Sequence record: MG673519.1 | Length of the DNA stretch: 64,000 nt | Reading direction: 5' to 3' (one strand) | Source: Escherichia phage LAMP | Part shown: piece after piece, positions 7,029 through 60,639 of the stretch | Position numbering within the stretch: position 1 is the first letter of the stretch | Layout of the letters: every line of letters begins with the position of its first letter | The notes under the pieces: generated by a model | The model's database searches: none | Seen by the model: only the letters and a program-made list of their open reading frames with translations | What the model was told of the DNA's origin: nothing | Made by a program: the position numbers and the translations under genes

Positions 7029-8090
7029 ATGGCTAATCCAACTTTATTTGTATCGTATGACCAGAATGGTAAAAAACTTTCTTTTGCTAACTGGATTTCT
7101 GTTCTGTCCCCTCAGGATACCCCGTTCGTATCTATGACCGGTAAAGAGTCTATCAACCAGACTATCTTTAGCTGGCAGACCGATGCATTGGCAAGCGTTG
7201 ACGCTAATAACGCACACGTTGAAGGTTCTCGTGCGGTTGATGGTGAAATGCAACCTACCGTAATTAAATCCAACGTTACTCAGATTCTGCGTAAGGTTGT
7301 TAAAGTTTCTGATACCGCTAACACCACCGCTAACTACGGTCGTGGTCGTGAACTGATGTATCAGCTGGAGAAGAAAGGTAAAGAGATCAAGCGTGACCTC
7401 GAGAAAATCCTTCTGTCCGGTCAAGCTCGTACCGATGTTCTGGCTGACCAATACCTGACTAACTCCGCAACTGATCCTGCAGCTGTTGGTCTGAACGACA
7501 CCCACGCAGCTCGTAAGACTGGTGCTTTCCAGTTCCTGTGTGCACACAACGGTGTTTCTGCTGGTGTTGTTAAGAAAGAAAATGGCCCTGCTGATCCGGA
7601 TACTGGTGCAGTAACTGTTAAAGTTGCACAGAATGCTTCTAACCCGACCACTAACGTTGGTTTTGATGAAGCTGATATCTTTGATATGACTCTGCAACTG
7701 TACACTGCTGGTTCTGAAGCAGATATCATCATGATCAACCCTGCTCATGCTAAGATCTTCGCTGGTCTGCAAGAAAACACTCAGGGTTCACGTAAGCGTA
7801 TCTTTGAGAACACCAAGCAGTTCATCTACGAAGTTAACAGCATCACTGACCCGCTGGGCCAGAACTACAAAATCATCGTTAACCGTTGGATGCCTACCGA
7901 TGCAGTTTACTTCTTCCGTAGCGCTGACTGGACTCAGATGGTCCTGCGTGCTCCGAAACGTACTGAACTGGCAAAAGATGGTTCTTATGAGAAGTGGATG
8001 ATTGAAATGGAAGTTGGTCTGCGTCACCGCAACCCTTATGCTTCCGGAGTTCTGTTCACTGCTGCGGGAAAGTTGGATCCGCAACAGTAG
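7029..8090 (+). CDS. Major capsid protein
   Basis: 353 aa; position after scaffold; GGAGC SD; C-terminus carries a slippery heptamer leading into an Ig-like ORF. Confidence 0.75.
   Translation: MANPTLFVSYDQNGKKLSFANWISVLSPQDTPFVSMTGKESINQTIFSWQTDALASVDANNAHVEGSRAVDGEMQPTVIKSNVTQILRKVVKVSDTANTTANYGRGRELMYQLEKKGKEIKRDLEKILLSGQARTDVLADQYLTNSATDPAAVGLNDTHAARKTGAFQFLCAHNGVSAGVVKKENGPADPDTGAVTVKVAQNASNPTTNVGFDEADIFDMTLQLYTAGSEADIIMINPAHAKIFAGLQENTQGSRKRIFENTKQFIYEVNSITDPLGQNYKIIVNRWMPTDAVYFFRSADWTQMVLRAPKRTELAKDGSYEKWMIEMEVGLRHRNPYASGVLFTAAGKLDPQQ
8066..8072 (+). other. Candidate -1 programmed ribosomal frameshift site (G GGA AAG)
   Basis: Heptamer in X XXY YYZ register in the capsid frame (codons GCG GGA AAG encoding A-G-K), 6 codons before the capsid stop. 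The -1 frame is open from about 8006 into the downstream Ig-like ORF. Confidence 0.55.
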
Positions 8091-8095
8091 ACAGT

Positions 8096-8608
8096 GTGAC
8101 TGTTAGCCCTGCGTCTGTAGAAAGTCTAGAGACAGGGGCTACTCAGCAGTTTACTGCAAGCGCTGAGAAGAGTGACGGTTCTACCGAAACAACTGGCTTT
8201 ACTTGGTCAGTAACAGGAGGCGGTTCTATCACTCAGTCTGGTTTGTATACTGCTCCGAGTGCGGCTCAATCCACTGATGTATCCATTACTGCGACTTTAG
8301 AGGGTGTTTCTGGTACAGCAACCATTTCTGAAATTGTTGATCCTACCCCTACTATTGTAGCTAAGGGTCCAATTACAGGTAAAACTGGTGGTTCTTCCAC
8401 TAACTTCACTACCATGTTTACTGTAACTAATTCTACTGCTGCGGATTACACGTTTGTTGTAACCCCTGCAGAAGCTGGTACAGTAAGCGCTGCTGGTGCG
8501 TTAACCTTAGATGATGCTGCAAGTGGCGAAGTTACTGTTCAAGCAAGTTTGACAGCTGACCCGTCCATCAATGCAACATGCACTTTTACTGGTGTAACAC
8601 CTGCTTAA
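8096..8608 (+). CDS. Ig-like (Big_2-type) domain ORF, probably expressed as a -1 frameshift extension of the major capsid protein
   Basis: 170 aa, Ig-like composition (TQQFTA...TWSVTGGGSITQSGLYTAP). Sits in the -1 frame relative to the capsid, begins 6 nt after the capsid stop, has no SD or ATG of its own (track start is GTG). Confidence 0.6.
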   Translation: MTVSPASVESLETGATQQFTASAEKSDGSTETTGFTWSVTGGGSITQSGLYTAPSAAQSTDVSITATLEGVSGTATISEIVDPTPTIVAKGPITGKTGGSSTNFTTMFTVTNSTAADYTFVVTPAEAGTVSAAGALTLDDAASGEVTVQASLTADPSINATCTFTGVTPA

Positions 8609-21630: not shown

Positions 21631-22413
21631 ATGGCAATTAGAATGGGTATAGAAGAGCTAGACCCGATGGTTCAACAGGCTTCAAAGAAGTATGGAATAC
21701 CAGCTGCTTTGATTCATGCTGTAATCCAAAGGGAGTCTAGTGGTCGTCCTAAGGTGGCTTCCGGAACTGGTCCTGTTGGTTTAATGCAGATCAGTAAAGG
21801 GTTAGCCAAAGATTATGGTTACAAACTAGAAGACAGACTTGACCCAGCAAAGAATATTGATATGGGTGCTCGTTACATCAGAGACAATCTGAAAGCTTTC
21901 AACGGTGATGTTAAGAAAGCAATGGTTGGTTACTCAGAAGGAACTGGTGGTGCTAAACAAATGTTCGCTGGTAAGAAAGGGTTTACTCCTCAGGCTCTTG
22001 ATTCAATGAACAACAAACACTTTCTCCCTTTTTATGGTGATGCAGCTTCTCAGATAGCTAACCCAATTGGAGCTTTGCAAGCTGTTCAACCAGTCAACCA
22101 GTTTAATCCAGACTTGTTAGACAGAGAGAAGGCTGCACAAGCTCCCACTCAGGCAGATATTGCTGCTTCTAAGACAGGTGCTTTAGGTGGTAATCCGGTA
22201 GAGTTTTACTCTGACGAAGTGCAGGAAGGTGAAGACCAGAAGCCCCAACAGAACTTTGGTAATGCAGTATTAGGGGTGGCTGCTATGCTTGCTGGTAAAC
22301 CTCCTACCTCTCAAACAGTTCAGAGGGCAAGTGCACCTCATGCAGCAGGTTCTCAGTACAGCCCACAAACACAAGCAGTGCTTAGACGTCTGGCTAGCAT
22401 TGGTGTTAAGTAA
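21631..22413 (+). CDS. Lytic transglycosylase (SLT domain) virion protein
   Basis: 260 aa; motif ...VIQRESSGRP...GLMQI... typical of soluble lytic transglycosylases; AAGGAG SD. Confidence 0.8.
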   Translation: MAIRMGIEELDPMVQQASKKYGIPAALIHAVIQRESSGRPKVASGTGPVGLMQISKGLAKDYGYKLEDRLDPAKNIDMGARYIRDNLKAFNGDVKKAMVGYSEGTGGAKQMFAGKKGFTPQALDSMNNKHFLPFYGDAASQIANPIGALQAVQPVNQFNPDLLDREKAAQAPTQADIAASKTGALGGNPVEFYSDEVQEGEDQKPQQNFGNAVLGVAAMLAGKPPTSQTVQRASAPHAAGSQYSPQTQAVLRRLASIGVK

Positions 22414-24479: not shown

Positions 24480-26135
24480 ATGCAACAGACAACTTACGCT
24501 CAGGTCAGAAGTCGTGACCCGAGAAATACTTTCTATGGTGTTAATCCGGGAGCGGCTTCGGCCTCTCCTTATATGGCTAGACCTATTCAGACAGCAGATG
24601 TTTCTATGTACCGACGTCCTTCTGTACCTCCATCTCTCGCAGGTCTTATCTCTCAGGCAGAAGAAGATCAGAATGCTATGGTGAATCCGGGATTCCAGCA
24701 ACGTCTTATGGAACAACAGAATCGAGGAACCCCAACAAGTCTTCAGGGTATTGATATTGGAGCACCAGCCCCTGTAGCAGCTAATCCTGATTTATCCACT
24801 GATCAGGGTTTACAAGACGCTGGACTTATGCCTAGCGACCCTCTTCCGGTAACGCCTCCTACTAAACCGCTAGAAGATGGCCCTATGGAGTTTACTCCTT
24901 CTCAAGTGGAACAGGCACAAGGTGTTGTTACTACTCTTGCTCAAGGTCAGGACACTGGAGACGGAATGGCTGGGGCTACTCGTATTAAAGATCAGGAACG
25001 TGTTAATAATGATATCATGCAAATTGCTAAAGCTAAAGACCCTTCCGAAGCTTGGAATAAACTACAGAAAGAACCTTTCTATCAGAACTCCAGTTTCTAT
25101 ACAGGTTTGATGGGTGTAGGTCTTTCTATCATGTCAGGTAAATCTCCTATCGAAGCATTCCAAATTGGTCAGGGAATGGCTAATCAAGATGAGACTAAGA
25201 AGCAACTAGAAGCTAACCGTGATGCTCTGATTGAACAAGGTTTCTCTCAAGATTCAATTGCAGCTGCTATTGCTAACGGAGATCCATCTCTTCTGAAGAT
25301 GAAAACTATAGACCCTGCTCAAAAAGAAGCATGGTATGAGGAGCGTGAAAGACGTCAGAATGCGGAGTGGGATAGACGTCAACAGATTCAAGAGAAATCT
25401 ATGCGTGAGCGTGCTGAGGAAACTCGTCGTGCTGCTGAAGAGAGGACTAACATGAACCTTGAACGTCAGAAAAAGTTGATTGACTATCGTGATAAGGTTA
25501 AGGCTGAACGTGCCGAACAAGCTGCTCAGAGTTTTAACTTCTCCCCTAAAGAGACTCGTAACGCTCAGAATACAGCTGAAGGTAAAGTTGCCACTCAGTG
25601 GGCAGAGAAAGGTGGCCTGTTTAACCAATCCAATAAAGACTTGGACTTGGCTGATAAAGCTATTAAGGACAAGGATTACCAGACGGCCCGTTCTGCTTAC
25701 ATGCAGGCTATCATGAACTCCGCAAGGGCTGAAATCGGTTCTACTCGTTCTCTTACTGAAGAAGACTTGGGACATTTTGCAGAAGATCCATCAATCTTCA
25801 TCCGTGTAGGTAACAAGTTCGCTCTGAAGTCGGGATGGCGTCCTACTGATTCTGCTCTTGCTTATGCTCGTAAACAAGCGAACGTCGGTTACACCTCTGC
25901 TATGAAGGGTGTTGCTGATGCTAAGAAAGCTGTTATCGAAGCGTACATCGGCTCTAAGATGGATAAGAAGAGAGCTACTGCATTGGTTAACCGTGCAATC
26001 CCTTCTGGCGGTTTCTATGATCCTCTCGGTGTTTTCTCTGAGGAAGCAGAAGAGGCAGTTGGTGGTGCAGCAACCAATCCTAAACTGAATGGTGCTTTAT
26101 CTGGTTCTTCAGATACTAGCTGGTTCACTGAGTAA
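24480..26135 (+). CDS. Putative internal virion protein
   Basis: 551 aa, charged/helical; in the run of genes between the transglycosylase and the giant protein. Confidence 0.5.
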   Translation: MQQTTYAQVRSRDPRNTFYGVNPGAASASPYMARPIQTADVSMYRRPSVPPSLAGLISQAEEDQNAMVNPGFQQRLMEQQNRGTPTSLQGIDIGAPAPVAANPDLSTDQGLQDAGLMPSDPLPVTPPTKPLEDGPMEFTPSQVEQAQGVVTTLAQGQDTGDGMAGATRIKDQERVNNDIMQIAKAKDPSEAWNKLQKEPFYQNSSFYTGLMGVGLSIMSGKSPIEAFQIGQGMANQDETKKQLEANRDALIEQGFSQDSIAAAIANGDPSLLKMKTIDPAQKEAWYEERERRQNAEWDRRQQIQEKSMRERAEETRRAAEERTNMNLERQKKLIDYRDKVKAERAEQAAQSFNFSPKETRNAQNTAEGKVATQWAEKGGLFNQSNKDLDLADKAIKDKDYQTARSAYMQAIMNSARAEIGSTRSLTEEDLGHFAEDPSIFIRVGNKFALKSGWRPTDSALAYARKQANVGYTSAMKGVADAKKAVIEAYIGSKMDKKRATALVNRAIPSGGFYDPLGVFSEEAEEAVGGAATNPKLNGALSGSSDTSWFTE

Positions 26136-26202
26136 GACCTAAGTCCTGCCTTCCATAATGTATATAGGAGGTAGGACATTTTTATTTATAAAAGGAGACG
26201 TT

Positions 26203-36461: not shown

Positions 36462-36943
36462 TTAGTGTGTATGCATCCAGTTTAACCCAATCTGACAATC
36501 AGAAGCCAGAGGACATTCCATGTTCAAGTACTCACCAGCCTTCTTAACACAAAGCTCGGTGTACTCTTTGAGTTTCTGTACATCATTACGGTTCACTGAG
36601 AACTGGCCCTCATCGTGCATATCAATTACCTTAGCACAACGAACTCCATCTTTCTCAATCCACTTGTTAAGGAACATCATAGCATATTTCATAACAACAG
36701 CACCAGCACATTGTAGGAGTGTGTTAAGGGCTTTATGAACCATAACCTTACCAGTGGCATCCCGTCTCATTGTAATCTTACGACCATCAACGCCAATCAA
36801 ATACCCTTGAGCAGCTTTCTCTGTCATACGATCAATGAGGATTGCAATACAAGGATTCTCTGCCAAGAAGCGTGCTCGCATCACTGAACCTTCGTCAGCT
36901 CCACCACCTACGATTGAACCAAGCTTAGCATCACCTGCCCCAT
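36462..36943 (-). CDS. DNA polymerase (family A, T7 gp5-like), exon 2 (palm C-terminal part, motif C)
   Basis: Frame open upstream of the track start (36884) to about 36943; contains VIDMHDEGQF (motif C-like). Joining to exon 1 reconstitutes ...RDNAKTFIYAFN|YGAGDAKLGSIVGG..., matching the motif B region of T7-type polymerases. Confidence 0.7.
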
Positions 36944-37247
36944 CAATAGTTCAAGCAAAGGCGCTACTCTTTGCTCCGTTCTCTTATGAACTGCTTACAG
37001 TTTCCTGTAAGATCGGACTATATCTTCATCTCCACCTTTACGTGCTGAGAGACAGGCGCTTCCGTAACACTTGTTACGTACTCCCTTCCGGGATAGTCTC
37101 TGAACTTTCCGTGACACAAACTTTTCTACATAGATCATTGATGTTTATGTCACGGCTTAGCTGCTGATTGGCATATCTTTCGACTTAGCTTTCCAGCAAT
37201 TCACCTGTTTTGCTTCTGCACATTTCTATGCAGTGAACCAATTATTT
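36944..37247 (-). ncRNA. Group I self-splicing intron (ORF-less, about 300 nt) within the DNA polymerase gene
   Basis: On the minus strand the core elements appear in order: P-like AATTGCTGGAAAG, Q-like AATCAGCAGC, R GTTCAGAGACTA, S AAGATATAGTCC. The upstream exon ends in U and the intron ends in G. Boundaries are +/-2 nt. Confidence 0.7.
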
Positions 37248-38610
37248 AGTTAAAGGCATATATAAACGTCTTCGCATTATCACGAGTAGGAAGACCAGCA
37301 AGTTTCTGGTTGTGGGAGTGGATATCACCTTCAAGAAGGATATCACGATACATAATAGCAGAAGCTAAACCACGTTCTGCCAGAGCTTTCTTAGCTGGAT
37401 TATTCTCTTCGATTGCTTCAGCAAGCATATCCCTACACTCTTTAATGAGGTAGTGAGCGAGCATACGAAGTTCAAGTCCAGAACCATCATACCCTAAGAA
37501 TACTTCTTTACCAGCGGGTATGTAATATTTGTAAGCACCTACAGGCTTATCTTTCTTCCCCGGCTTACCTTTCTCGTAAATTACGTTAGTACCTTTTCGT
37601 ATATAACAACCATCAGGAACAACGTTAGTAATAACGAAAGGACGAGAGTGATCACTGTCTGAATTATAGTCAGACTCAAACAAACTGCGACACTCATGAC
37701 CAAACAAACCACGGGAGGGAATATTAACCACGATACGATGTTTGAATCGAAAAGTTGGCGTAGCGCAGCTGTTAGCTTCTGCCGAAAGTTTACCATCTTC
37801 GCGTTCCTTTGCTATGAGTCCACTGATAAGACCTAGCCTGTGAGCCGCTACAACGCGCCTCTTAAGCAAACTTCCAACACTCCCTAGCTCGCCCCCTAAC
37901 CCTTCTTCAAGAGTCTCCTCGAGGTTTGTAGGAGCTGTAGGCCACTTGTTTGAGGTAGCTAGTGCTATCTTAATCTCATCAAACGTGATAGGTCTACGTC
38001 GGTTAGGGTTTAAACCTAAACCAAACACATAAGCCTTCATATAGTTCTTAGTCTTAAACCTAAAATGCTTCTCTAAGAACCTCCTAATATCTGCGTCAAC
38101 CATCTCGGCTGTCTGCTTCTGTTTAGCATTACCTCGCATCCAAGCTGAATACCACGCTTGGTATGTTCCATACTTTCGTATATCTTTCTTGATTTCAAAA
38201 GTATTCCAAGGTTTCTTTGATACGTTAAACTCTGGAGGAAGAAAACCCTCATCCATAAGGGCTTCTTTAACTCGTGCATCTTTCGATGGGTCAAAGTCCA
38301 CGTATTCAACACAGGTGAATGCTCCACCAATGTCTTCTCTCTTAAGGCCAACTCTATCACAATAGGCTTGAGGCCACTTCTGTAAAGCTCCAGACTTCTT
38401 AAATGGCTTCATATAAGTAGAGCCATCTAGTCTCATCTTAGGTAAGAGAGGGATCAGTTCTTTGTCGATATTAACAATAATCTCTTTAAGGAGGTGAACA
38501 TACCACCGAGCATTTCTTCGGTTGAAACTCACTCCGTGCTTCGCTTGCTTAGAGATTATATCAGCGACAGTCATCTCTGTCAAAAATGGGAGAGCGTCCG
38601 GGTTGCTCAC
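37246..38610 (-). CDS. DNA polymerase (family A, T7 gp5-like), exon 1 (through motif B); no 3'-5' exonuclease domain
   Basis: 454 aa; motif A-like LGYDGSGLELRMLAHY and motif B-like RDNAKTFIYAF; the stop codon lies at the intron junction. GTG start in the track. My base-level indexing of the 3' end disagreed with the track by 1 nt, so I kept the track coordinates. Confidence 0.8.
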   Translation of the reverse strand: MSNPDALPFLTEMTVADIISKQAKHGVSFNRRNARWYVHLLKEIIVNIDKELIPLLPKMRLDGSTYMKPFKKSGALQKWPQAYCDRVGLKREDIGGAFTCVEYVDFDPSKDARVKEALMDEGFLPPEFNVSKKPWNTFEIKKDIRKYGTYQAWYSAWMRGNAKQKQTAEMVDADIRRFLEKHFRFKTKNYMKAYVFGLGLNPNRRRPITFDEIKIALATSNKWPTAPTNLEETLEEGLGGELGSVGSLLKRRVVAAHRLGLISGLIAKEREDGKLSAEANSCATPTFRFKHRIVVNIPSRGLFGHECRSLFESDYNSDSDHSRPFVITNVVPDGCYIRKGTNVIYEKGKPGKKDKPVGAYKYYIPAGKEVFLGYDGSGLELRMLAHYLIKECRDMLAEAIEENNPAKKALAERGLASAIMYRDILLEGDIHSHNQKLAGLPTRDNAKTFIYAFN

Positions 38611-38626
38611 TTTATACTCCTTTAAA

Positions 38627-39049
38627 TTATTGGTAAAGTAAATCTGTAAATGCTTGGTTGTCTTCTACTACATCTAGCAAGGTTGCTTCGTTACTATAAG
38701 ACCTAACTGTCCCGTTGACAACTGTCCGAGTAGGAGAGGGAGGTGGTGTATGGTTAGCTCTAGCTTCACGAGGTTGCTCTCGTACTAAATGAGCCATAGC
38801 CATTTGGTTAGCGACTTCTTCTCTTTCTCGAATAGCTCTCTGAATATAAGCTAGCTTCATGCCCCAAGCTTCTTCAAATTCTTGAGGATGTTTGTCACTG
38901 ATAACCACATATTGACGTTCAGGGATACCAGAGCGAATCTCTGATAAGAGTTCACAGAACAAATCCAGTTCGTGTTCAGTGAGATTCATTTCGATATCAT
39001 CCCACTTGAGAACTAGGAAACGGTTTTGATATCTAGTCGGTAATGGCAT
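38627..39049 (-). CDS. Hypothetical protein
   Basis: ORF track, 140 aa. Confidence 0.5.
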   Translation of the reverse strand: MPLPTRYQNRFLVLKWDDIEMNLTEHELDLFCELLSEIRSGIPERQYVVISDKHPQEFEEAWGMKLAYIQRAIREREEVANQMAMAHLVREQPREARANHTPPPSPTRTVVNGTVRSYSNEATLLDVVEDNQAFTDLLYQ

Positions 39050-51488: not shown

Positions 51489-53519
51489 TTAACCTCTATT
51501 CAATGAACATTTAGGAGAATTACAATAAACTTGATTCATAGAACCAAGCGTACAACTTTCAGCATCGCGCCACGGAATCTGCTTAAAACACCCTGAGCAG
51601 TAGCCGAGGGTTGACCACATTGCTTTGGTGAAATCAGTGCTTCGGTTTCCGTCGAAGCTGACAACAGTTTTGCGGAGAGCTGTTCGTGATTCAGGAAACA
51701 CACCTGCTTTCTCAGCAGGTTCCTCCTTTTTTGGCTTAGTTGAGATTGCAAAAATACTGTTGCTACGTTTCTCAACATAAGCATCAACAACATCCTCCAG
51801 AGTAATGCCTGTCTGTTTCGCTGAGGAAGGTAATACAGTCATACGACCAATCATATCTTCAGTTACACGTAAAGCAAATTCAGGACGACGGGCGTTTGTT
51901 GTATCTGTTGCTTTAATCCAGACATAACCATCTTTGATCGTAGCATTAGATACTTTCTTCTTTATATCTACAGCGCAGACTTTACAGATATCTTCACCAC
52001 GAAGACGACTGAGTTCATCATCAAACTCGTTCTCTGTTTTAACTTCACCACAGATTTCACAAACACCAATAGGAGTTTCCTCCTCTTCTTCATCTTTAGG
52101 CTTAGTCAAACCTTCCAGACATTCAGGGTGCCAGTAGCATTGATATGCGAAGACTGCTTTAGGTGCATCCTTCCAATCAATGTGTTTATCACAACCGCCA
52201 CAATCACCATGAGAATGTGCTTCCCAGAATTTACGAGTGATAGTAACGCCATTCTTGTTGACGAAACTATCATTCATATCAAAAGGGATATCATCATCAA
52301 AGTCAGCAGTAGTTGACTCAGGCTCCTTTTTCTCCAGAGATGGGTCAACAAAACGACCTGCTGTGATCACTAAACGAACCATAGCATTAACTTCGGAGAT
52401 ACAGGATACTGTCCCACGGTAAACAATTTTAGGGTCTTTCAGGGCATCCTGATAAGCCTTAATGTCTACGTTATGAACATCACCTTCGATATACTCTTGA
52501 GATTTCTCATCGTAGATATAACCAATCATCTTACCCCGAGAAGGAACAGCACCAGCAGTTGCATAAGGGACAAACTCATGTGGTGTGATCTCCACAGTCA
52601 TGTCGCGGCGAATGTCAATGTTTCGATCGCTTGCGATTTTGTTTTGACTTACCACTGCGTTTCTTCGACGAACGTCTGCCGCTGTCACTCCCGGCTTCGT
52701 GTCGTAAGGATTGCTTGTACTGCTTTTTGAGGAACTTTGATAGTTGCTTTGGCTGTAGTTGTTCGAGTAGTAATTGCCCCAACGATTGATTACCGTAAAA
52801 ACCGGAAGCTCGTGGGCGACCTCTTCAACTAGAGTCATGCTGTTGTTTGACACATCAAAGATGTATTCTGTACCAACTTTACATTCAAAGTGCTCATCAA
52901 TGCGATTCTTGTGAGACCTAGAACGCTTCAGAATCCACATCAACATATCTTCTTCAGAAGCACCAAACCAATCTCTGTTACAACGTGCAAGATGGAAAGG
53001 ACGCTCTTCATTACGGATGATATGAAGACGATTATCAGAAGCATCATGCCAGATTAAGGTGAAAGCACCATCCAGCTTTTGAATAGTCTCTGCTGCACCA
53101 ATAGTGTTAATAGAGTGGCAGATGTTTTCACTGTCTACCTCGAAGTTTTTACTGTCAGGTAACAGGTCTTGGTTCATCAAGGTTCCGTTATGAACCAGAG
53201 TGATGTTACCGTGTTGGAAAGGATGGGCGTTCTTGGCGTTAACTGCACCTTTCGTTGCATGACGGCTGTGACCAACAATCCATGAAGGTGCTACAGTGTA
53301 AGCTGTTTCACCAGTGGTGTGCTTCTTGTACTCATCTTGAAGGATGAATGCGAAAGAAGGAAGTGCCTCTTTATAAGTGAAGACTTCTTTAGTGCTTTTA
53401 CGCTGACCAAAGATACCAGAGGAGTGCTGTCCTCGGAATACTCCAGCATAAAAGAGTTGGTTAAATATATCTAAATCAGTGCTTGACAGATTACCGCCAG
53501 CTAATACGATGCCACAAAT
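51489..53519 (-). CDS. Class II (Ntn-type) glutamine-amidotransferase-like protein fused to Cys-rich zinc-ribbon domains; apparent AUU start
   Basis: The track gives 51489..53180, but the frame is open a further 113 codons upstream. The first codons read (AUU)-CGIVLAGGN..., the (M)CGI N-terminus of class II amidotransferases / Ntn hydrolases. No ATG/GTG/TTG between the upstream in-frame stop and the catalytic Cys. AGGTGGA SD 7 nt upstream of ATT; length divisible by 3 with the track stop. C-terminal part holds several CxxC pairs. Confidence 0.65.
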   Translation of the reverse strand: MCGIVLAGGNLSSTDLDIFNQLFYAGVFRGQHSSGIFGQRKSTKEVFTYKEALPSFAFILQDEYKKHTTGETAYTVAPSWIVGHSRHATKGAVNAKNAHPFQHGNITLVHNGTLMNQDLLPDSKNFEVDSENICHSINTIGAAETIQKLDGAFTLIWHDASDNRLHIIRNEERPFHLARCNRDWFGASEEDMLMWILKRSRSHKNRIDEHFECKVGTEYIFDVSNNSMTLVEEVAHELPVFTVINRWGNYYSNNYSQSNYQSSSKSSTSNPYDTKPGVTAADVRRRNAVVSQNKIASDRNIDIRRDMTVEITPHEFVPYATAGAVPSRGKMIGYIYDEKSQEYIEGDVHNVDIKAYQDALKDPKIVYRGTVSCISEVNAMVRLVITAGRFVDPSLEKKEPESTTADFDDDIPFDMNDSFVNKNGVTITRKFWEAHSHGDCGGCDKHIDWKDAPKAVFAYQCYWHPECLEGLTKPKDEEEEETPIGVCEICGEVKTENEFDDELSRLRGEDICKVCAVDIKKKVSNATIKDGYVWIKATDTTNARRPEFALRVTEDMIGRMTVLPSSAKQTGITLEDVVDAYVEKRSNSIFAISTKPKKEEPAEKAGVFPESRTALRKTVVSFDGNRSTDFTKAMWSTLGYCSGCFKQIPWRDAESCTLGSMNQVYCNSPKCSLNRG

Positions 53520-53522
53520 TTT

Positions 53523-53552
53523 CTAATCCACCTGAAGGGTAAACCCTTTCAT
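53523..53552 (-). promoter_or_regulatory. 9-codon leader mini-ORF (MKGFTLQVD) ending 3 nt before the AUU start of the amidotransferase
   Basis: Read directly: ATG AAA GGG TTT ACC CTT CAG GTG GAT TAG, then AAA ATT TGT GGC; own AAAGG SD; the arrangement suggests termination-reinitiation coupling. Confidence 0.35.
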
Positions 53553-53598
53553 CTAATTAACCTTTAAATTGTGCCCCTTCGTCAGAGGCACCCATTGA

Positions 53599-54702
53599 TT
53601 ACAGCGCTTGCTCTAACTGATTTTCCAGATGATCTGGAATATATCCTGTGATGTTGTTATCACTGTGTCCTGACTCACGTAGCAAGTCAAAAATAGCACG
53701 GATACGCTGTTCTGATGCAGATCGTACAGTAGATAGGTCAGTTGTACGAAGCATAACCAGAATTTCTTGGTACAAGTTGTTAGCGTTCCCTCGAATATAC
53801 CCAAGGAACCCATAGAAGTCTGGAATAAGACGTAAGTCAACAAGAACTTCTCCGTTGGAGTTGGTTCGACGTAAACGAATACGACCAGACTGCTCTACTT
53901 CATGAGAACGACAATACAAAACATCACGGGCCATACAATACCCTGAATGCAAATCCGATTCGTCCAGATTGTAATCCAGAGGAAGATAAGGAAGCATTGG
54001 GGCAAATCGTACAGTATTTAAATGCTCAATAAACTGGTCATTGCTCATCTCTGCGTTATCTAAAGCCAGCTTCTTCAACATTAAGAAGCGGTTAACCAGA
54101 TTGAGAAGTTGACCACGTTTCCACTTAGGCTCACTGATACGAAACTCAATTGAGCCGTATTGGGCAAGTGGCAGAAGGTTCAGAGATGTATACTTATCCC
54201 ATGAACGAACCAGACGGTTGAAGAACTCTTCACCATCGTAGTTAAATGCGTCAGAGGCGTTCATTACCTGTGCTTGTACCACTGCGAAAGCAGGGCAGAA
54301 GTTGCTACGGTAACGATGATAGCCTGAACACTTGAACAACATTTTTTCATAGAAGGTCCAAGCGAGGATGGTTTTCTTGAGGATATTACTATCAGCATCC
54401 CTCATATCCATATGAACGTGAGTAGAGCAACGCCAAGTCCCCTCGGCGTGCGATTCAGCTACTGCTTCACTCAGGTTGTTGATAGCGTCTAACAACTCCT
54501 GTCCATTGTAAGGTCGTGAACATACCATTTCACAACCATTACGCAGGGAACCATCCTCTGTACAATCCCACATATCTGCTTCAATATGGTCGGAACCTTC
54601 GAGTTCTAGTTCGATACCGATACCGCACTGAAGTGCAATTGAACTATGCGCCTCAGTTAAACGACCTTCTCGGTATCCAAAAGTTTGCGCTACAGTTGTC
54701 AT
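53599..54702 (-). CDS. Putative amidoligase (glutamine-synthetase / GCS2-like carboxylate-amine ligase)
   Basis: 367 aa; N-terminal ...IALQCGIGIELELEG... resembles the GxExE strand of GS-like amidoligases; stop overlaps the downstream gene. Assigned from motif and context only. Confidence 0.4.
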   Translation of the reverse strand: MTTVAQTFGYREGRLTEAHSSIALQCGIGIELELEGSDHIEADMWDCTEDGSLRNGCEMVCSRPYNGQELLDAINNLSEAVAESHAEGTWRCSTHVHMDMRDADSNILKKTILAWTFYEKMLFKCSGYHRYRSNFCPAFAVVQAQVMNASDAFNYDGEEFFNRLVRSWDKYTSLNLLPLAQYGSIEFRISEPKWKRGQLLNLVNRFLMLKKLALDNAEMSNDQFIEHLNTVRFAPMLPYLPLDYNLDESDLHSGYCMARDVLYCRSHEVEQSGRIRLRRTNSNGEVLVDLRLIPDFYGFLGYIRGNANNLYQEILVMLRTTDLSTVRSASEQRIRAIFDLLRESGHSDNNITGYIPDHLENQLEQAL

Positions 54703-60343: not shown

Positions 60344-60639
60344 ATACCCTCCAATTAAACATTTATATAAGACTTGCTTAGATAAAGATTCAATAAAATA
60401 GGGGGAGGGGACGAATCCTCCCTTATCCTATTAATTAGTATTGCATGTAAGATCTAACAATCGGTTTCCTTTGTAGGAATAAGCGTTATGCTCATCCAGC
60501 ACTAAACTCCCGCCCCCTTAGTGGGCTGGGTTATTAAAGGGTAACGCCCTTATGGGCTAGTTACGTGAATGTTAGTTTGATAGGAGATCTGAAGTCCTAT
60601 CTCAAAGGACTCTCGTAAGAATCCTTCACGATAAGCTCT

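Follow-up and report, generated by a model that had tools for sequence, protein, structure and literature searches.

In the 64,000-nucleotide (nt) stretch of DNA from Escherichia phage LAMP analysed here (sequence record MG673519.1; this whole stretch is referred to below as the window), a minus-strand gene for a class II (N-terminal nucleophile, Ntn) glutamine amidotransferase probably initiates translation at the AUU codon at positions 53519-53517, after which removal of the initiator Met would expose the catalytic Cys as residue 1 (Cys1). Comparison across relatives places the probability of this reading at roughly 0.8. Translated from the ATT, the frame ends at position 51489 and specifies 676 amino acids (aa), in which the class II (Ntn) glutamine amidotransferase domain comes first and is followed by a low-complexity linker and then by a C-terminal part rich in Cys. 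The features of the gene and its start site are the following:

51489..53519, minus strand: full coding sequence (CDS) from the ATT, delimited by translation and by Pfam, phrog and PDB profile matches, with the same extent as phi32_83 in EU330206
53517..53519, minus strand: ATT, the proposed initiation codon (AUU), sole candidate between the in-frame TAG and the Cys codon
53514..53516, minus strand: TGT, the catalytic Cys (Cys1 once Met is removed), invariant column C1 of alignments A1 and A2
53527..53533, minus strand: Shine-Dalgarno (SD) sequence AGGTGGA, seen in the sequence, 7 nt (TTAGAAA) from the ATT
53523..53552, minus strand: leader open reading frame (ORF) MKGFTLQVD plus TAG, nine codons, with its ATG at 53552-53550 and its TAG at 53525-53523
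53178..53180, minus strand: internal TTG, the start in ORF finders and many GenBank records, at residue 114, inside the GATase_6 match and just past the H-N-G motif

The leader ORF (hereafter mini-ORF) and the main ORF share one reading frame. Along the minus strand, the TAG is followed by AAA (53522-53520), ATT and TGT, and from the in-frame TAG to the Cys there are the codons AAA and ATT only, with no AUG, GUG or UUG. The first canonical start in frame is the TTG, 113 codons 3' of the ATT. An earlier note on this DNA had pointed out that the frame is open for 113 codons 5' of the annotated start, beginning CGIVLAGG at the Cys, and that an AUU placed 7 nt past AGGTGGA is what remains between the UAG and the Cys; translation bears out the former point and the sequence the latter. 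The window contains 62 stop-to-stop frames that are 120 codons or longer, and in none of the others is the stretch before the first canonical start nearly as long as the 114 codons seen here, the next real candidates having 55 or fewer; the open 5' stretch of the amidotransferase frame exceeds chance.

Profile comparisons were used to establish the nature of the encoded protein. Pfam GATase_6 matched residues 76-176 (E=3.2e-15; 56.7 bits against a cutoff of 27), GATase_7 scored 30 bits against a cutoff of 25, and phrog_4736 matched with E=4e-202, position 2 of its profile falling on the Cys. When a profile of alignment A2 (19 family members) was compared with PDB entries, its position 1, i.e. 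the Cys, fell on residue 1 of mature GlmS (1xff, E=1.5e-16) and on residue 1 of PurF (1ecb and 1ao0, E=1.9e-14), with the R-G, H-N-G and D-S-E motifs in register; 1ao0 represents mature B. subtilis PurF, which begins at Cys. Residues C1, R28 G29, H109 N110 G111 and D128 S129 are invariant in alignments A1 and A2, and E130 in A1 only. The protein therefore combines a Cys aligned with Cys1, the core motifs of class II enzymes (R-G near residues 26-28, the H-N-G oxyanion hole and D-S/T-E) and hidden Markov model scores over threshold. The GlmS/PurF profile alignment upholds the proposal of the earlier note that the upstream codons specify a class II amidotransferase N terminus with Cys1 as nucleophile. 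As this Cys must be N-terminal in class II enzymes, the position of the start codon is pinned.

The phage protein resembles GlmS, PurF and AsnB, all class II Ntn enzymes, in the catalytic domain with its Cys1 nucleophile, whereas its C-terminal half is unrelated to theirs. The C-terminal 440 residues matched no Pfam family, and Pfam and phrog scans detected no sugar-isomerase or phosphoribosyltransferase domain in this half. The GenBank name 'L-glutamine-D-fructose-6-phosphate aminotransferase' is unjustified, since a sugar-isomerase domain is lacking. Unlike the coliphage gene, the class II cellular homologues sampled (loci L135-L144) all start with ATG.

The 113 codons between the ATT and the internal TTG were shown to evolve as coding sequence. 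In comparisons with the ECBP2/Bas87, SU7 and KBNP1711 lineages, the ratio of non-synonymous to synonymous change (dN/dS) over these codons was 0.05-0.12, with ~50-60 of 80 synonymous sites differing against ~35-40 of 259 non-synonymous sites. The synonymous sites are saturated (proportion of differing synonymous sites, pS, 0.61-0.74), and such a low dN/dS despite this saturation indicates that the 113 codons are translated. Within them lie Cys1, the R-G motif and the greater part of the catalytic core, and no frameshift or stop interrupts them in any of 23 coliphage-type loci, while initiation at the TTG would split the Pfam domain in two. On this sequence evidence, the internal TTG is implausible as a start and the N-terminal domain is made, with a Cys that must end up N-terminal. 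The orthologous product of phage SU10, gp85, was detected in infection with nine peptides (PMC4281155).

The non-canonical codon is conserved and not sporadic, as it is found in 23 coliphage-type loci, in Aeromonas phage BUCT695 and in locus L132. No coliphage relative examined (23 loci, 11 distinct sequences, at least three genera) shows any change in the ATT or its leader. ATT-TGT is present in all coliphage-type relatives and in BUCT695, which belongs to another family, and ATG-TGT occurs at the same point in Proteus phage Privateer, Cronobacter phage 009, Salmonella phage SE131 and Pseudoalteromonas phage RIO-1.

With regard to public records, a 2.2-kb query was 99.9% identical to Escherichia phage Bas94, the region is by sequence that of a phiEco32-like coliphage, and ~98 phage records carry the gene, phi32_83 of phiEco32 and its orthologues being the same gene as that in the window. 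The CDS already starts at this ATT in EU330206 (phiEco32, 2008), NC_010324, SU10 KM044272, Bas87 and Bas94. Among the 56 annotated records listed, nine have a CDS spanning the ATT region, and the remaining records truncate the gene, beginning at a TTG, GTG or ATG 27-340 nt downstream, with a codon that varies by record, and thereby removing Cys1. The AUU start of this gene is accordingly not new as an annotation, though it is widely mis-annotated. No paper discussing or testing the ATT start was found in a search that left the original phiEco32 genome and transcription papers outside its scope. The truncated annotations delete the catalytic Cys and half of the catalytic domain, and any gene finder that does not consider ATT and ATC will make the same truncation in related phages and metagenomes.

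To survey the start codon across the enzyme family, loci were fetched through conserved internal motifs, i.e. blind to the start codon: 31 from viral contigs, 80 from metagenomes and 15 from genomes. Alignment A1 was used for the contig scans, the wider A2 being too diverse for pattern design; the codon directly before the Cys was read in each locus, and proteins were clustered at 70% identity. The 115 scorable loci comprised ATG (85), ATT (22), GTG (3), ATC (2), TTG (1) and ATG-TGC-TGT (2). At the level of 73 protein clusters, ATG was found in 57, ATT in 10, ATC in two, GTG in three, TTG in one and ATA in none, so that ATT or ATC occurs in 12 of 73 clusters (~1 in 6) and is commoner than GTG and TTG combined. 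Outside the coliphages, the nearest relative of each ATT/ATC lineage has ATG (for example, L075/L077, 70.5%; L097/L098, 67%; L132/L056, 82.6%), from which roughly ten independent switches to ATT or ATC are deduced. In-frame stops lie 1-6 codons upstream in the ATT/ATC loci, leaving no possible canonical start; the sole exception is L075, in which a TTG is present but upstream of its own SD. For example, L038 reads TAA ATT TGT, L132 reads TAG TAA ATT, and L042 reads TGA TAG GAG GAC TTA GCT ATT TGC. The SD sequences of the ATT/ATC loci are situated 6-8 nt from the start. Given the Cys1 alignment, the purifying selection, the invariant ATT and this recurrence, the suggestion in the earlier note that initiation at the AUU yields an M-C-G-I N terminus is strongly supported by comparison.

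Ten of the 12 ATT/ATC lineages use ATT and two use ATC; none uses ATA, even though ATG to ATA is the only transition. This distribution suggests selection for a third-position pyrimidine, as at infC.

Upstream of the AUU, a predicted hairpin abuts the SD:

53535..53548, minus strand: hairpin AAGGG-TTTA-CCCTT, free energy -4.6 kcal/mol, ending 1 nt before the SD

In other ATT/ATC leaders, a stem of 4-7 base pairs likewise ends 0-2 nt before the SD, with a sequence that is unrelated between lineages:

LAMP: AAGGG/CCCUU
L132: AAGGGA/UCCCUU, with an extra compensating A-U pair (AAGGGA-TTTA-TCCCTT)
L081: CCUGA/UCAGG
L151: CAAGC/GCUUG
L102: AAGCC/GGCUU
L038: GUGUUG/CAACAC
L123: ACAGG/CCUGU
L097: AUGC/GCAU

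Among the 14 ATT/ATC lineages, 10 had a hairpin of -3 kcal/mol or stronger ending at positions -24 to -13, a range chosen after seeing the data; among the 67 ATG loci, the number was six (Fisher P=3e-6). An untuned profile of pairing probability from -60 to +20 contained a single differing bin, at -20 to -16 (0.75 versus 0.45, P=9e-5). With one value per cluster and homologous leaders merged, the corresponding values were 0.74 and 0.44 (Mann-Whitney P=1.8e-4; permutation P=7e-5). In BUCT695, one of the two leader substitutions relative to the coliphages falls in the hairpin loop and the other in the SD. An alternative, SD-sequestering hairpin (GGUUUACC/GGUGGAUU, from the minimum free energy fold) was dropped because both BUCT695 substitutions break it, while the AAGGG/CCCUU stem survives. 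Elsewhere in the window, a near-copy of the hairpin and the SD edge (AAGGGTTTACTCCTCAGG) is located at 21977-21994 on the plus strand; it has two mismatches, which break the stem, and 0.02 matches were expected by chance.

The family-wide recurrence of AUU/AUC and its association with an SD-abutting hairpin appear not to have been described before. We tentatively suggest that the recurrent module, composed of the SD-abutting hairpin, a 7-8 nt spacer, AUU or AUC and the Cys codon, with ~10 separate gains or retentions, could possibly be a selected regulatory device. If so, synthesis of a glutamine-consuming enzyme would be tied to start-codon proofreading by the host, i.e. to the ratio of initiation factor 3 (IF3) to ribosomes, guanosine tetraphosphate (ppGpp) and nutrient supply, and the hairpin would dock the mRNA on the 30S platform, allowing a non-canonical codon. 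This would also be the first enzyme family besides infC with recurrent, conserved AUU/AUC initiation, and it would supply a new sequence-structure signature by which to find non-canonical starts in phage genomes. In this family, nature has provided replicated data on the contexts in which ribosomes accept non-canonical starts and on the reasons why selection favours them.

For the gene in the window, initiation would be SD-directed, with the initiator formylmethionyl-tRNA pairing with the AUU, and deformylase and methionine aminopeptidase would then expose Cys1. The hairpin and SD may help to hold the 30S subunit long enough for the AUU to be accepted. The weak start would keep output low and dependent on the strictness of start-codon proofreading (IF3 level, ppGpp, nutrient state); by analogy, a translational throttle on the enzyme, as the earlier note put it, is a reasonable idea. 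Ribosomes ending the leader ORF 3 nt upstream may add a share of reinitiation, as at infC, which would be an extra and not the core of the mechanism.

Several observations weigh against initiation at the AUU or against the role ascribed to its context. AUU is a poor start, with 6-8 fold lower output than AUG in reporters (PMC3592434), and the duplex of the LAMP SD with the 16S 3' end (-5.9 kcal/mol) is below the family mean in strength. The SU10 proteomics data were searched with a truncated 63.8-kDa model and not with the 676-aa model (PMC4281155). An out-of-frame UUG that overlaps the AUU could capture initiating ribosomes. Furthermore, the ATT/ATC loci are not fully independent phylogenetically, the hairpin association was spotted before being tested and includes metagenomic lineages, and the SD is slightly stronger in ATT/ATC than in ATG members, at a marginal P=0.02. 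A regulatory purpose of the AUU, such as IF3 or ppGpp sensing, can be inferred only.

A stronger SD that compensates for ATT or ATC was considered and rejected, as P was only 0.02 and the SD in the window is weaker than the family mean. As regards the overlapping UUG, it is located at 53517-53515 on the minus strand (A-UUG-U) and opens an eight-codon ORF, LWHRISWR followed by a stop, which extends to 53491. Every ATT-TGY start generates such an overlapping UUG, and the ATC lineages generate CUG instead. As a decoy, the overlapping UUG could draw initiating ribosomes away.

The sequence upstream of the AUU is exceptionally conserved:

53512..53569, minus strand: ultra-conserved leader block, 58 nt identical to Bas87, of which 55 nt (53512-53566) are invariant in 11 distinct coliphage-type sequences

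The invariant 55 nt, seen in 23 loci, consist of the 50 nt upstream of the Cys codon and the next five, in a setting where the flanking CDSs are 70-75% identical. Among exact matches between the window and the Bas87 genome, the 58-nt block ranks sixth in length; judged by position in the Bas87 annotation, no longer one seems to lie mostly outside CDSs. The two substitutions that distinguish the BUCT695 leader from those of the coliphages are both non-synonymous in the mini-ORF. In L132, a 73-aa helix-turn-helix (HTH) ORF (L132:1-222) runs through the hairpin and ends TAG TAA against the ATT; BUCT695 (L009, NC_070977) has an unannotated 43-aa HTH ORF (L009:1374-1505) followed by a nine-codon ORF; and the coliphages retain the nine codons only, homologous in frame to the tail of the L132 HTH ORF. 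From this series, the mini-ORF is deduced to be what is left of the 3' end of an upstream HTH gene. It is possible that the HTH ORF encoded a regulator linked to the amidotransferase gene and was lost in the coliphages.

This leader raises the question of termination-reinitiation, which the earlier note had proposed for a nine-codon ORF with its own SD that ends at the UAG 3 nt before the AUU. The ORF and the spacing are as it described, while the SD, AAAGG, is weak (-3.4 kcal/mol) and is missing from the BUCT695 version (+0.9). Reinitiation may be obligatory, in that a ribosome would have to start at AUG 53552, melt the hairpin, stop at the UAG and restart at the AUU, with little or no enzyme made otherwise; we regard this as somewhat unlikely. 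It would account for the presence of an ORF stop within 3 nt of the ATT in each of the homologous leaders (LAMP, BUCT695 and L132, the last with a real 73-aa HTH gene), for the retention of the mini-ORF ATG in the coliphages and BUCT695, and for upstream genes that stop 1-4 nt before the ATT in L097 and L101. At infC, which has the same 3-nt gap, about half of translation arises in this manner (PMC3592434). However, besides its weak or absent SD, the mini-ORF carries the hairpin at its positions +5 to +18, which would hinder its own initiation, and both BUCT695 substitutions in it are non-synonymous. L042, L115, L123, L076 and L038 have no in-frame ORF ending beside the start, and L081 and L151 share the junction AGGAGGATTAGAAAATT-TGTGG, i.e. 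the GGATTAGAAAATT junction as in the window, without a real ORF that stops at the TAG. The AUU, moreover, has its own well-placed SD. Thus, the three homologous leaders argue for a contribution of reinitiation and the ORF-less AUU/AUC lineages against its necessity: the mini-ORF is a plausible source of reinitiating ribosomes, though one that other AUU lineages can do without.

Alternatively, the conservation of the leader may reflect a promoter or operator, or the site of a phage RNA-binding regulator, to which the AUU would be incidental; AUU initiation is still compatible with this explanation, which is unlikely. Invariance extends to every position of the block, the spacer and the 18 nt 5' of the hairpin among them, which goes beyond the needs of an SD and a start codon. 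A terminator-like hairpin is situated just upstream, ATTAGA is repeated on either side of the SD-abutting hairpin, and TTTAAA(T/G)GT recurs ~22 nt before the ATG in related Grimontviridae-type genes. Conversely, the leader contains no match to the phiEco32 gp36 consensus tAATGTAtA, no sigma-70-like promoter was found on this strand, the TTTAAA varies at the 5' edge (AATTAAAGG, AACTAAAGG), and the same sequence is coding in L132. Rfam likewise provided no match at the leader, where the best scores were 16-17 bits against gathering scores of 44-70; across the whole window it recognised a group I intron and a tRNA only.

The TTTAAA(T/G)GT motif is present in L019, L021 and L022-L024 ~22 nt before the ATG and in the window at 53561-53569, where the conserved leader has its 5' boundary; neither the phiEco32 nor the 7-11 phage sigma factor has a published promoter consensus that matches it. 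A promoter reading of TTTAAAGGT was rejected: it lacks a gp36 consensus match and a sigma-70-like site, is no more frequent in the window than chance would allow (three occurrences against 1.25 expected), and its TTT varies at the edge. Known gp36 promoter sites are located elsewhere, before phiEco32 genes 6, 13, 26, 40, 58 and 68 (PMC4331800, PMC8948821). Elsewhere in the window, a 37-nt block identical to Bas87 (26155-26191), which shortly precedes the Bas87 CDS starting at 24808, contains ATAATGTATATAGGAGG, which fits the gp36 promoter consensus (PMC8948821).

Two further explanations concern the protein itself, and a third the sequence record. Readthrough of the UAG from the mini-ORF AUG, with a 12-residue extension that is cleaved autocatalytically like the propeptide of B. 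subtilis PurF, is very improbable. The mini-ORF is in frame with the main ORF, and some class II amidotransferases, such as B. subtilis PurF, do carry cleaved propeptides. The frame agreement has, however, a one-in-three chance of arising anyway, with no indels among the three leader variants, and peptide-level conservation of the mini-ORF is not seen. As tRNA-Arg(TCT) is the single tRNA found in the window, the UAG has no suppressor. More than 55 family clusters start M-C without a propeptide, and the other ATT/ATC lineages have no in-frame upstream ATG. Their stops before the ATT or ATC (TAA in L038, tandem TGA TAG in L042, TAG TAA in L132) exclude readthrough and a propeptide as a general explanation.

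Even less probable is a product that starts at TTG 53180 or another internal codon, the 113 codons being left untranslated or decaying as a remnant. Such a start is the one chosen by gene finders and in many records, and the SU10 proteomics table gives the 63.8-kDa model. It is contradicted by the dN/dS and intact frame of the 113 codons in the 23 coliphage-type loci, by the presence of Cys1, R-G and most of the catalytic core within them, by the location of the TTG within the Pfam domain and by the disagreement of the records on the internal codon. A sequencing or assembly error that conceals a canonical start has nothing in its favour beyond the rarity of ATT starts and is in practice refuted by the identical ATT in ~98 independent phage records and several metagenome assemblies, leaving it a negligible chance. 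Bypassing and frameshifting were also rejected, as there is no matching landing codon and no frame change is needed; the out-of-frame mini-ORF of L038 has no slippery site.

The amidotransferase gene is situated in an early-gene cluster that, according to Pfam and phrog matches, also encodes an Amidoligase_2 protein, a phiEco32-type COOH-NH2 ligase and a RimK-like ATP-grasp enzyme. The adjacent upstream features are:

53599..54702, minus strand: upstream amidoligase gene (Amidoligase_2), in a different frame, with stops in all frames before the leader
53571..53591, minus strand: terminator-like or stabilising hairpin GTGCCTCT-GACGA-AGGGGCAC, a predicted fold between the amidoligase gene and the leader, the sequence of which varies by lineage

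Phage clusters of amidoligase, COOH-NH2 ligase, ATP-grasp and amidotransferase genes were reportedly described by Iyer, Aravind and colleagues in 2009, together with their predicted chemistry. The neighbourhood found here matches those clusters, with a gamma-glutamyl cyclotransferase in relatives; that work covers the chemistry of the clusters and not the translation of the amidotransferase.

Other features of the window were also noted. A group I catalytic intron (RF00028, 100.8 bits) is present at 36994-37257 on the minus strand. Open frames flank it at 37246-38664 and at 36462-36950, and in the second of these 22 codons precede any canonical start; the region looks like an intron-split gene. 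The open frame at 8006-8608 on the plus strand has 30 codons before its first canonical start. In SU10, gp9+10 is a capsid protein extension made through ribosomal slippage (PMC4281155), and the frame at 8006-8608 may, by analogy, correspond to it. A 57-nt block identical to Bas87 (60577-60633), which in Bas87 is located in an intergenic gap just past the stop of a gene, ranks second in conservation among the non-coding stretches of the window; two small inverted repeats, AAGGA...TCCTT and ATAGGA...TCCTAT, can be made out in it by eye.

Conservation of AUU or AUC as a start codon is a textbook rarity, the E. coli cases known to us being infC and pcnB. The thrS-infC junction of E. coli K-12 reads GGAGGA-A-TAA-GGT-ATT and that of the window GGTGGA-T-TAG-AAA-ATT, with the same spacing throughout: an SD hexamer, 1 nt, the upstream stop, 3 nt and AUU. 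As in the phage family, AUU and AUC recur across relatives of infC, where they are the target of IF3 autoregulation (PMC5499595). At infC, AUU yields ~4-fold less than AUG, and reinitiation and de novo initiation contribute about equally (PMC3592434); nutrient limitation and ppGpp suppress non-AUG starts most (PMC5499595). The two systems differ in that the upstream ORF is a full gene (thrS) at infC and a nine-codon relic in the window, and in that infC has no SD-abutting stem (pairing probability of 0.29 at -20 to -16), whereas the window has one. As infC encodes IF3 and the product in the window is a metabolic enzyme, no autoregulatory loop exists in the phage case.

The pcnB gene, which encodes the E. 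coli poly(A) polymerase, offers another parallel, since its AUU start is cited as limiting translation (Binns and Masters 2002, as cited in PMC3592434). Like the phage gene, it represents a non-regulator enzyme held down by an AUU start, although it is a single chromosomal gene. The phage family further shows start-codon recurrence and an SD-abutting stem. For pcnB, we know of no report of recurrent independent origin across a family or of an SD-abutting hairpin. Finally, as the coliphage case occurs in a tractable host and is a near position-for-position copy of infC, it is directly testable with IF3 and ppGpp genetics.

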